Below are positions 4,251 through 5,684 of a stretch of DNA of 27,599 nt, piece by piece. The notes beneath the pieces are model-generated. The model made no database searches and was not told where the DNA came from. It saw only the letters and a list, made by a program, of their open reading frames with translations. This DNA comes from Escherichia coli (GTDB taxonomy: Bacteria > Pseudomonadota > Gammaproteobacteria > Enterobacterales > Enterobacteriaceae): assembly GCF_003334405.1 (NCBI RefSeq), contig NZ_QOWM01000029.1; one strand, written 5' to 3'. Positions within the stretch are counted from its first letter, which is position 1. Each line of letters begins with the position of its first letter. The position numbers and the translations under genes are program-made.

Positions 4251-4569
4251 GTACAATAATTTTCGATATCCAAACTGACCCTTATATGTTGTGTTATCTC
4301 CCTGACATGTGATGCGTCGCGCAGGGGCGGAAAACAGCGATATGATTATTTCCTTAGCGTGGTACATTTCCGGAAAGTTGTTAATACGGAAGAAACTGGA
4401 TCACCGGAAAAACACCGTCCGGTAATTTAATTGAGTAGTTATAATACTGGAAATTATAAAATTGTGAAAATATTTCATTGGGTATAATCACTGGGATAAC
4501 ATAGAGTGATGCTGCATATCATAATTGCTATGAGTGATTATTAATCTGCAAGCCAGAAAGGAGGTCAGG

Positions 4570-4929
4570 ATGGGACGTTCAGTATCGGTGAAGATTGGTC
4601 AGAAGGTATTTAAGTCCAAAAAAGCCGCCGTAAGTTATTACATGGATCAACGGCCTGACGTGAAAGCCGTTGGGGTCATTTCAAAAGGCAGCTATTTTGA
4701 GGAGCTGAAAGAACTGTTCACCCTCTATTGCGATAGCTGTCCGGGATGGGAACTAAACGGCCGCCTGATTAAACATTTCACGGTTCAGAGCGAACCTCGT
4801 TTTACGAATGGCCGCTGGGTGTCACATCCCTGCTATAAGTTCCAGCTGAGCAACGGTGAGCTGAGACTGTTTTCGGTAAAAAAGGCAATAAATGCCATAG
4901 TCAACGTTGCTGTAGCTGAACAACGATAG
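4570..4929 (+). CDS. Hypothetical protein (about 119 aa) with CxxC and HxC motifs
   Basis: ATG at 4570 is preceded by a strong Shine-Dalgarno (AAGGAGG at 4558-4564). Upstream AT-rich region has a TATAAT-like -10 and inverted repeats (ATAATCACT / AGTGATTAT). No family recognised from sequence alone. Confidence 0.5.
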   Translation: MGRSVSVKIGQKVFKSKKAAVSYYMDQRPDVKAVGVISKGSYFEELKELFTLYCDSCPGWELNGRLIKHFTVQSEPRFTNGRWVSHPCYKFQLSNGELRLFSVKKAINAIVNVAVAEQR

Positions 4930-5038
4930 CTAAGGGCGGGATTTATCAACAGAGCATCGATACAAAAAACTATGAAAAAGAAAAACGTCAGAACCCGGGT
5001 TACTGGCAAGCGACAGCGGCTGGCACAATAGCGCTTGT

Positions 5039-5567
5039 TTGAATTACATGCCTGAGCACGGCACTGCTTACACCGAAGGTTGTCGGCGAGCTGCTGGGAT
5101 TCTGATTGGTCACATTGATGCGTCTGGACGGGACCAAGATTTTCTGGTTTATCCGGTGTTGTTTCTCTACAGGCATCACTTAGAGCTCCTTATCAAACAA
5201 ATTATTAGGCTGGCTCTGGCACTGGTAGAAGAGCCGGATAAACACAAGTACAAAAAAGATGACCATAACCTGAATAATCTATGGCCACTGGCACAAAGGC
5301 TGATCCTGGATGTTGATGACAGCTACCGGCCTTCCGATTTTTAAATCGTCAAAGAGGTGGTTAAAGCTCTTCACCTGGCTGATAAACGGGCGACAGATTT
5401 CTGATATGCCAGGAGAAATGACGGCACCCGGAGCCTTGAAGGAATTCATTACGTCACCTCCCGCTGCTTTGGGGAAAAAATGGGAGATGTTTCAGATTTA
5501 TTTGACAGGGTCGGCAACGGCCTCCGGTATCTGCTGGGCTGTAAAGCTGAATGGAATCAAATTCTGA
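5039..5567 (+). pseudogene. Decayed gene of unknown function (frameshifted; coding signal in at least two frames)
   Basis: Two overlapping ORF-track ORFs in different frames (5039..5344 and 5310..5567), and the third frame also yields protein-like peptide (…MGDVSDLFDRVGNGLRYLLGCKAEWNQILNSF). Pattern consistent with a gene broken by frameshifts. Confidence 0.3.
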
Positions 5568-5684
5568 ACAGTTTCTGACATCCAGAAACGGTGCGAAAAA
5601 TCCATCAGACTTACTTGGAAAGCCAATGATACTGAGATACAGATTATTACAGGCCTCATACCTTCTGCTACTTCTCAGGGCTCG

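Follow-up and report, generated by a model that had tools for sequence, protein, structure and literature searches.

A partly decayed cassette of a DUF3223-fold gene and a HEPN-fold pseudogene in the ccdAB position of an Escherichia coli IncFII-type plasmid segment

A two-gene cassette in the rfsF-resD slot

We analyzed a 27,599-nt stretch of Escherichia coli DNA (contig NZ_QOWM01000029.1; the whole stretch is hereafter called the window), which is a mosaic, partly decayed segment of an IncFII-type plasmid, and focused on two short genes located between an IS110-family insertion sequence (IS) and resD, the gene of a tyrosine recombinase. This two-gene cassette fills the slot between rfsF and resD, that is, the position of ccdAB in the F plasmid, because the window ResD shares 93% amino-acid identity with F ResD over 242 residues and the leader of the cassette (4283-4385) shares 86% identity over 103 nt with positions 261-363 of the F pifC-ccdA intergenic region. 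The first gene is intact, and its product is a small alpha/beta protein with the DUF3223/DCL fold; the second is a pseudogene from a family of 202-aa proteins with a predicted HEPN fold; these fold-level identities are new for two genes that are labeled 'hypothetical' in all plasmid annotations examined. Rather than a novel type of element, the locus is an accessory cassette that has partly decayed; its proposed role in plasmid addiction or anti-phage defense is weighed below.

The interval 4283-6428 represents an rfsF-resD multimer-resolution module of the F/IncI type, and such modules are widespread in the clinically important IncF, IncI, and IncK plasmids. In the F plasmid, pifA-pifC are encoded on one strand and ccdA-ccdB-resD on the other, with a 580-nt intergenic region between them; this interval is described as containing two rfsF sites, followed by oriV-1 and then by ccdAB and resD (PMC4398462). 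Switching of gene sets at rfsF has also been described in the literature. The window and F share these flanks with two short co-directional genes between them; however, the window genes are unrelated to CcdA and CcdB and have no detectable gyrase-poison or antitoxin domain, the second of them is dead, and only one of the two rfsF-type repeats is left. An earlier sequence-only reading of this DNA had placed the pair between an IS and a resolvase, which agrees with the IS110-family transposase upstream and ResD downstream. The two genes were not identified as ordinary backbone genes of F-type plasmids, as neither carries a named backbone function in any of the annotations. The coordinates of the identified features are given in Table 1.

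The ancestral ATG start codon of resD (MTGLIPSATSQG...) reads ATT at 5646-5648 in the window, and the first ATG-initiated frame begins only at 5685 (5685-6428), while the resD start given for the same sequence in public annotations is a non-canonical one at 5637.

Table 1. Features of the cassette, its flanks, and the remainder of the window
Feature	Positions	Strand	Basis or remark
Intact 119-aa gene, divergent DUF3223/DCL-fold (HamC-like) protein	4570-4929	+	ATG open reading frame
Shine-Dalgarno sequence AAGGAGGT	4558-4565	+	Direct reading, four bases before the ATG
Promoter-like element of the small gene (predicted)	4496-4525	+	-35 ATAACA, 18-nt spacer, -10 CATAAT
DNA homologous to the F rfsF/oriV1 region	4283-4432	.	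5' half of the leader
Pseudogene of the 202-aa HEPN-fold plasmid protein	4972-5578	+	Aligned to intact homologs
resD, tyrosine recombinase of the rfsF/ResD multimer-resolution system	5646-6428	+	Xer/integrase family matches
IS110-family IS (IS1111-type layout)	2905-4283	+	Adjoins the cassette; limits from the same unit in pCss165Kan
IS110-family transposase coding sequence	2928/2967-3989	+	NCBIfam NF033542, E 7e-104
RepA of IncFII	14936-15805		
Pef/Afr-type fimbrial usher and chaperone	Elsewhere in the window		

The small gene encodes a divergent DUF3223-fold protein

The small gene is conserved in related plasmids but rare. Its homologs were found by tblastn in 179 of 72,556 plasmids (137 of them near full length), always labeled 'hypothetical'; a locus search with the close alignment found only 9 loci in approximately 100,000 species genomes, and an exhaustive profile search of 1.84 billion proteins recovered only 76 representatives at E <= 1e-3. 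Given these plasmid homologs, a ratio of nonsynonymous to synonymous substitution rates (dN/dS) of 0.18-0.23 against three homologs, and a confident AlphaFold model (mean pLDDT of 85), the gene is real and under purifying selection. The near-consensus ribosome-binding site reported in the sequence-only reading is found at the listed position and is conserved as AAAGGAGNTCAGGATGGGACGT in the enterobacterial homologs.

The 119-aa sequence by itself has no Pfam match even at E <= 10 and none in NCBIfam, single-sequence searches of PHROGs returned nothing useful, and the profile of the close family found no match among the PDB sequences. The only direct match is to the PADLOC model HamC2 (DUF3223), which covers the full length of the protein with an E-value of 0.002. 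A profile constructed from 47 relatives matches PDB 2K0M_A with an E-value of 5.2e-6 (positions 2-107 / 3-98), and the Pfam DUF3223 model (PF11523) matches 4 of these 47 relatives at E <= 1e-3 and 16 of them at E <= 0.1. The 2K0M structure, which represents Rru_A0810 of Rhodospirillum rubrum, is a solved member of DUF3223 and has the same three-dimensional fold as the modeled small protein, although the two are just 18% identical. Foldseek comparison with AFDB50 returned neighbors annotated as DUF3223, as DCL-like (chloroplastic), and as La, together with HNH- and GIY-YIG-annotated proteins with target lengths near 240 aa; in addition, the small-protein family has a weak profile match to the DeCL segment of Pol V (E 0.16).

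The same fold is found in HamC of the type II Hachiman system, where it accompanies hamA (DUF1837) and the helicase gene hamB, whereas the neighbors in the window are the IS110-family element, the HEPN-fold pseudogene, and resD; HamAB was present in none of the related loci examined. In contrast to HamC, the small protein belongs to a small plasmid-borne clade. The domain superfamily also includes the eukaryotic DCL/DeCL proteins, such as plant DCL, the C-terminus of Pol IV/V, and the Tetrahymena La protein Mlp1, from which the small protein differs in being bacterial, stand-alone, and plasmid-borne. The DUF3223 region of Mlp1 is required for tRNA-mediated suppression (PMC9705548), which connects the fold with RNA handling; the HNH, GIY-YIG, and La annotations among the Foldseek neighbors likewise point to an association of the fold with nucleic acids.

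The CxxC and HxC motifs, which had been taken as a hint of metal or nucleic acid binding, are present in the window copy; however, they are confined to its closest relatives, and C57 and H86 vary even at approximately 50% identity. The wider family has no invariant column at all, its near-invariant residues being A, Y, F, F, S, and A. Because of this lack of conservation, metal binding via the two motifs was rejected, and a metal site or a catalytic center in the small protein appears unlikely from the alignments.

The downstream gene is a decayed member of a HEPN-fold family

In the DNA alignment with two intact copies, the pseudogene is free of insertions and deletions beyond its start region. 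Three lesions inactivate it: the loss of 2 nt (GG of codon 4) directly after codon 3, between 4980 and 4981, and two nonsense substitutions, AAA to TAA at 5342-5344 and CGA to TGA at 5402-5404. Residues that are otherwise invariant in the family have been lost (N21S, Y38C, R145stop, and N163T), and the dN/dS values against the intact copies (0.18-0.26) are approximately twice those between the intact copies (0.07-0.12). At least three further E. coli assemblies contain exactly this sequence, lesions included; the lesions are thus real rather than read errors, and the lineage circulates. The earlier view of the 5039-5567 stretch as a recently inactivated gene was correct with respect to decay and wrong with respect to its three coding frames, since the gene occupies one frame across 4972-5578 with no internal insertion or deletion. 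The open reading frame at 5310-5567, which had been counted as the third frame, was rejected as a spurious overlapping frame.

The intact gene is very common at this site in enterobacterial plasmids: the stretch 4260-5680 matches 3,193 plasmid records, mostly via the 202-aa gene and the start of resD. The 202-aa family is predicted to be all-helical with the four-helix up-down arrangement of the HEPN fold, the top structural neighbors of its model include the HepT toxins of HEPN/MNT systems, and two members of the family are named 'HEPN domain-containing' in UniRef. At the sequence level, a single family member has no match in Pfam or NCBIfam, the Pfam HEPN model PF05168 reaches just E 0.015-0.1 in 3 of 22 members, and the comparison with the RiboL-PSP HEPN neighbor by hhalign gives a probability of 0.2% and hence no sequence kinship; none was found with the PDB chains either. 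The family alignment contains the invariant residues R68, H70, E72, K76, H99, D138, F144-R145-Y146, and N163, but no conserved catalytic Rx4-6H motif; the RSLEGIH string seen in the enterobacterial copies is not conserved. Since the family lacks this motif and has no sequence link to HEPN proteins beyond an E-value of about 0.02, we describe its modeled product as HEPN-fold, which falls short of a proven HEPN RNase.

Compared with the known HEPN proteins of HEPN/MNT (HepT/MntA), Csm6, LsoA, HepS, and the C-terminal domain of AbiA, the 202-aa family not only lacks the canonical Rx4-6H but also has its own invariant set (YRHHxELxxK, FRY, and NxR), is longer owing to its 202-aa length with an N-terminal DWHNNACLN extension, and has neither an MNT partner nor a sequence-level match. 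The two products of the cassette had previously been called unrecognizable; this holds for their annotations, which leave both unnamed, and no longer for their folds, DUF3223 and HEPN, respectively.

The leader is composite and largely shared with the F backbone

The DNA upstream of the small gene consists of three parts, namely the IS-associated positions 4260-4282, which comparison with pCss165Kan and with the F and IncK copies places outside the leader, the rfsF/oriV1-like part 4283-4432, and the part 4433-4569, which is specific to the small gene. In relatives, homology to the F intergenic region extends up to its position 405. The F and IncK copies of this region open with the inverted pair CACAACATGTAGTG ... 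CACTATATGTTGTG; in the window only the right rfsF-type repeat TATATGTTGTG (4283-4293) is retained, while the left member is absent and the IS abuts instead. Because the left repeat and all beyond it are gone, this plasmid may no longer have a working ResD resolution site.

The rfsF/oriV1-like part contains the palindrome TTTCCGGAAA at 4367-4376 and the inverted repeat ATCACCGGA/TCCGGTAAT at 4400-4408 / 4418-4426. An alignment of six plasmids revealed the invariant blocks CGTGGTAC.nTTCCGGAAA, GGATC, and CGGTAATTTA, which are kept even in an IncK plasmid that has a different first gene. The leader is conserved across plasmids because its 5' half is rfsF/oriV1-homologous backbone DNA. The palindromes had been interpreted as an operator of the small gene; they sit in DNA shared with F and are thus not private to this gene.

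The adjacency of the small gene to this DNA, its location upstream of resD in many plasmids, and the conserved palindromes within the DNA would be expected if the small protein were an accessory of ResD/rfsF or of the oriV1-like region, for instance an architectural or regulatory binder of the palindromes. Such a role is nevertheless very unlikely: F and thousands of other ResD plasmids have no small gene, the IncF plasmids of Klebsiella have the small gene and no resD nearby, and the gene is likewise found together with IetAS or Rep3 and in ResD-free marine plasmids.

The part of the leader next to the gene contains the block CATCATAATT..TGAGTGAYTATT..CCAGAAAGGAG, which is conserved upstream of the small-gene homologs, and the predicted promoter at 4496-4525 is the only plus-strand consensus match in the leader. 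The TATAAT-containing sequence and the inverted repeats had been noted in the sequence-only reading, yet the leader is statistically unremarkable, with 3 promoter-like sites against 3.0 +/- 1.9 expected and with folding z-scores of about -1 on either strand (-1.0 and -0.9), that is, no better than shuffled sequences. A search for further copies of the leader in the window found just a 49-nt match with 75% identity near 17578, which we judged to be due to chance.

The leader also contains nested long-range inverted repeats (4292-4305/4488-4501, 4340-4353/4449-4462, and 4400-4408/4418-4426), and the module shares its side with the imp genes in the IncI-type relatives. Both features might suggest a single-stranded DNA promoter of the Frpo/ssi type that would drive early anti-defense expression after conjugative entry. 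However, the leader resembles neither Frpo1 nor Frpo2 of F in sequence, although these two match each other at 89%, its single-strand folding is ordinary, as noted above, and its conserved part is explained by the homology to F rfsF/oriV1. We therefore rejected this candidate as extremely improbable.

Partner exchange in related plasmids

In the related loci the small gene is always the first gene of the array, and ResD usually follows the array. In the enterobacterial plasmids a co-directional gene begins 17-59 nt after the small gene (six loci); in the window the corresponding gap is 42 nt (4930-4971), and the pseudogene starts on the same strand with the ATG at 4972. Intact pairs of the small gene and the 202-aa gene are found in Kluyvera pKATP2, Klebsiella grimontii, and Raoultella planticola. 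In other relatives the next gene encodes a 269/266-aa RiboL-PSP HEPN protein (Pfam E 7e-5), a 229-aa membrane protein that matches the PADLOC candidate PDC-S67 (E 1e-17), or a 267-aa protein. We take the PDC-S prefix to be the PADLOC label for a single-gene candidate. The 267-aa protein belongs to a metagenomic relative, in which a KAP-NTPase gene and a 364-aa gene diverge from the array of the DUF3223-like gene, the 267-aa gene, and ResD. In Serratia microhaemolytica, the IetA/IetS genes (E 9e-76 and 5e-40) are located 207 nt after the DUF3223-like gene. The product of the latter gene matches PADLOC HamC2 with an E-value of 7e-4, and a large mad8-like ATPase gene is located just upstream (locus L022, 3998-8062).

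Small proteins that are 82-91% identical to each other precede unrelated types of partners. For example, the small proteins of loci L003 and L004 are 90% identical, with a HEPN partner in the former and an unrelated membrane-protein partner in the latter. Conversely, the 202-aa gene follows three different first genes, and its usual predecessor is either a different small-gene clade (48-51% identity) or a gene for an unrelated 116-aa protein, while the small-gene clade of the window is usually joined to other partners. The window pair is therefore a recombinant of genes that normally have other mates. The 116-aa protein is helical (phrog_36524, E 7e-79), and its gene is the one preceding the 202-aa gene in most E. 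coli IncF/IncI/IncK plasmids (e.g., L001, 3298-3648; L019, 2081-2431); it is a second candidate type of partner for the same slot.

These neighborhoods bear on the possibility that the cassette derives from a classical type II toxin-antitoxin pair, in which the 119-aa protein would be the cognate antitoxin that binds the 202-aa HEPN-fold toxin, and a mismatch between the two would have forced the loss of the toxin and left an orphan antitoxin. The architecture and position of the cassette are those of ccdA-ccdB upstream of resD in F: it consists of two short, adjacent, co-directional genes, intact pairs exist in loci L014 and L023, and HepT toxins are among the structural neighbors of the 202-aa model. 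Of the two genes only the upstream one is intact, as is usual when toxin-antitoxin modules decay, and the mates of the recombinant pair come from different usual pairings; in addition, one Foldseek neighbor of the small protein is annotated 'Immunity protein 35 domain-containing'. On the other hand, the near-identity of the L003 and L004 small proteins with their unrelated partners is hard to reconcile with specific neutralization, and no cognate co-variation was observed, as partners swap at 82-91% identity. The small gene is solo in several lineages, a different gene precedes the 202-aa gene in thousands of plasmids, and the Pfam Imm35 model is matched by no member of the small-protein family. 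The plasmid is also generally decayed (remnants of traI, asr, and tnpA, and the lost start of resD), so the pseudogene needs no special cause. A cognate pair is thus an unlikely explanation.

Alternatively, the slot, being prone to recombination, might have collected two unrelated single-gene cargoes. The DUF3223-like protein would then act on its own; it might, for example, regulate plasmid genes by binding RNA or in the manner of a chaperone, or serve as a HamC-related anti-defense decoy. The solo occurrence of the small gene, the mixing and matching of first and second genes, and the single-gene label of the PDC-S67 partner are consistent with this explanation; the conserved flanks (the rfsF region and resD) could drive replacement by homologous recombination, and rfsF has been described as a switch point. 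The constant order in enterobacterial plasmids, where the small gene stays first with a short gap to a co-directional gene, argues for a functional relation instead, as does the recurrence of the fold in a multi-gene defense system (HamC with HamAB, 379 systems). We consider independent cargoes to be rather doubtful.

The gene content on the other side of the rfsF region is also variable and includes pifA-pifC in F, a KAP NTPase pair in L008, and a gene for a RES-domain protein in L007. Several plasmids encode a SMODS nucleotidyltransferase and an S-4TM effector that diverge from the rfsF region (L002, 620-2551; L019, 1-1403) and constitute a minimal CBASS-like pair at the position of pifC-pifA in F. 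Conflict genes thus appear to be gathered on both sides of rfsF.

A putative conflict cassette with a generic first gene

We propose that the cassette serves as a conflict module, either in plasmid addiction or in anti-phage defense, at a position analogous to that of ccdAB. The effector or toxin of the module would be the product of the downstream gene; RNase activity is typical of HEPN proteins. The DUF3223-like protein would be an exchangeable upstream partner of a generic kind that probably regulates or senses by binding nucleic acid, rather than acting as a catalytic enzyme or a cognate, protein-specific antitoxin. The generic role is suggested because the small gene is always first and its product lacks conserved residues of the catalytic type, because 82-91% identity is kept while the effector types switch, and because the fold is fused elsewhere to HNH and GIY-YIG nucleases and to La proteins. 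In the window plasmid the putative effector is dead, and at most the small protein would still work. We regard this proposal as evenly poised between right and wrong. The sequence-only reading had expected accessory cargo (defense, anti-defense, or addiction) at this site, and that expectation fits the ccdAB slot and the defense-type next genes, although three of its specific hints, on metal binding, on an operator of the small gene, and on the coding frames, were wrong.

Parallels to such an arrangement are the PanA/DUF4065 antitoxins and the BrxR/CapW regulators with WYL domains, which are promiscuous upstream partners of variable conflict effectors. The likeness consists in a small conserved first gene that is combined with interchangeable unrelated effectors on mobile elements, and it is an analogy only in arrangement, as the small protein has an unrelated fold with neither a DNA-binding helix-turn-helix nor a WYL domain.

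Several observations weigh against a conflict cassette of this kind. Solo small genes occur beside Rep3 in small plasmids and in Vibrio, Pseudoalteromonas, Shewanella, and Rheinheimera, and since they have no adjacent co-directional partner, the small protein may function by itself. The 116-aa gene described above takes the place before the 202-aa gene in most plasmids, and hence the two genes of the window are not an obligate pair. The adjacency to IetAS in Serratia, with its 207-nt gap within a defense island, could be a coincidence. Finally, the bacterial function of DUF3223/HamC is stated to be unknown by the PADLOC authors (PMC8565338).

A broader version of the proposed conflict cassette would treat DUF3223-like proteins, including HamC, as a plug-in control or sensor module for unrelated effectors, which might span HEPN RNases, membrane disruptors, IetAS, and Hachiman HamAB, and the rfsF-resD slot as a dedicated cargo hotspot; the window would then be a recombinant cassette caught after the silencing of its effector. 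This generalization is speculative, and we think it improbable. If DUF3223-like proteins control or sense for swappable effectors, they would offer the first functional handle on HamC and on the DCL/DeCL domains, and the rfsF-resD slot would be a place to seek plasmid-borne defense and addiction genes.

The IS110-family element and the remainder of the plasmid segment

The IS110-family element upstream of the cassette has nearly no 5' leader and approximately 290 nt of 3' non-coding DNA (3990-4283), which together indicate the layout of the IS1111 subgroup. In this subgroup a guide (bridge or seeker) RNA is expected downstream of the recombinase gene; an Rfam search over 3900-5700, covering the 3' end of the IS and the leader, found no structured RNA at E <= 1. 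The right IS junction (4279-4293) coincides exactly with the right repeat of the inverted pair in the rfsF region. To the left of the IS, the C-terminal remnant of a Tn3-family transposase gene (2521-2883) ends in a 38-bp terminal inverted repeat (2867-2904), which reads GGGGAAGTCCCTTCCATTCGTTAAGG... inward, and the IS110-family element begins directly at the outer end of this repeat. The same repeat-plus-IS unit is present in the plasmid pCss165Kan of enterotoxigenic E. coli, so the IS may target the Tn3-family terminal repeat or move together with it.

Other parts of the window are similarly fragmented. The relaxase/helicase TraI is represented by a sole surviving internal fragment (11058-12131, minus strand; model positions 1120-1463), and therefore the transfer region has been at least partly lost from this plasmid segment. 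Fragments of the anaerobic sulfite reductase operon asrABC (the C-terminal part of asrA, asrB, and the C-terminal part of asrC) are located at 17677-19931 beside an IS256-family element, and this operon is an unusual cargo for an E. coli-type plasmid.

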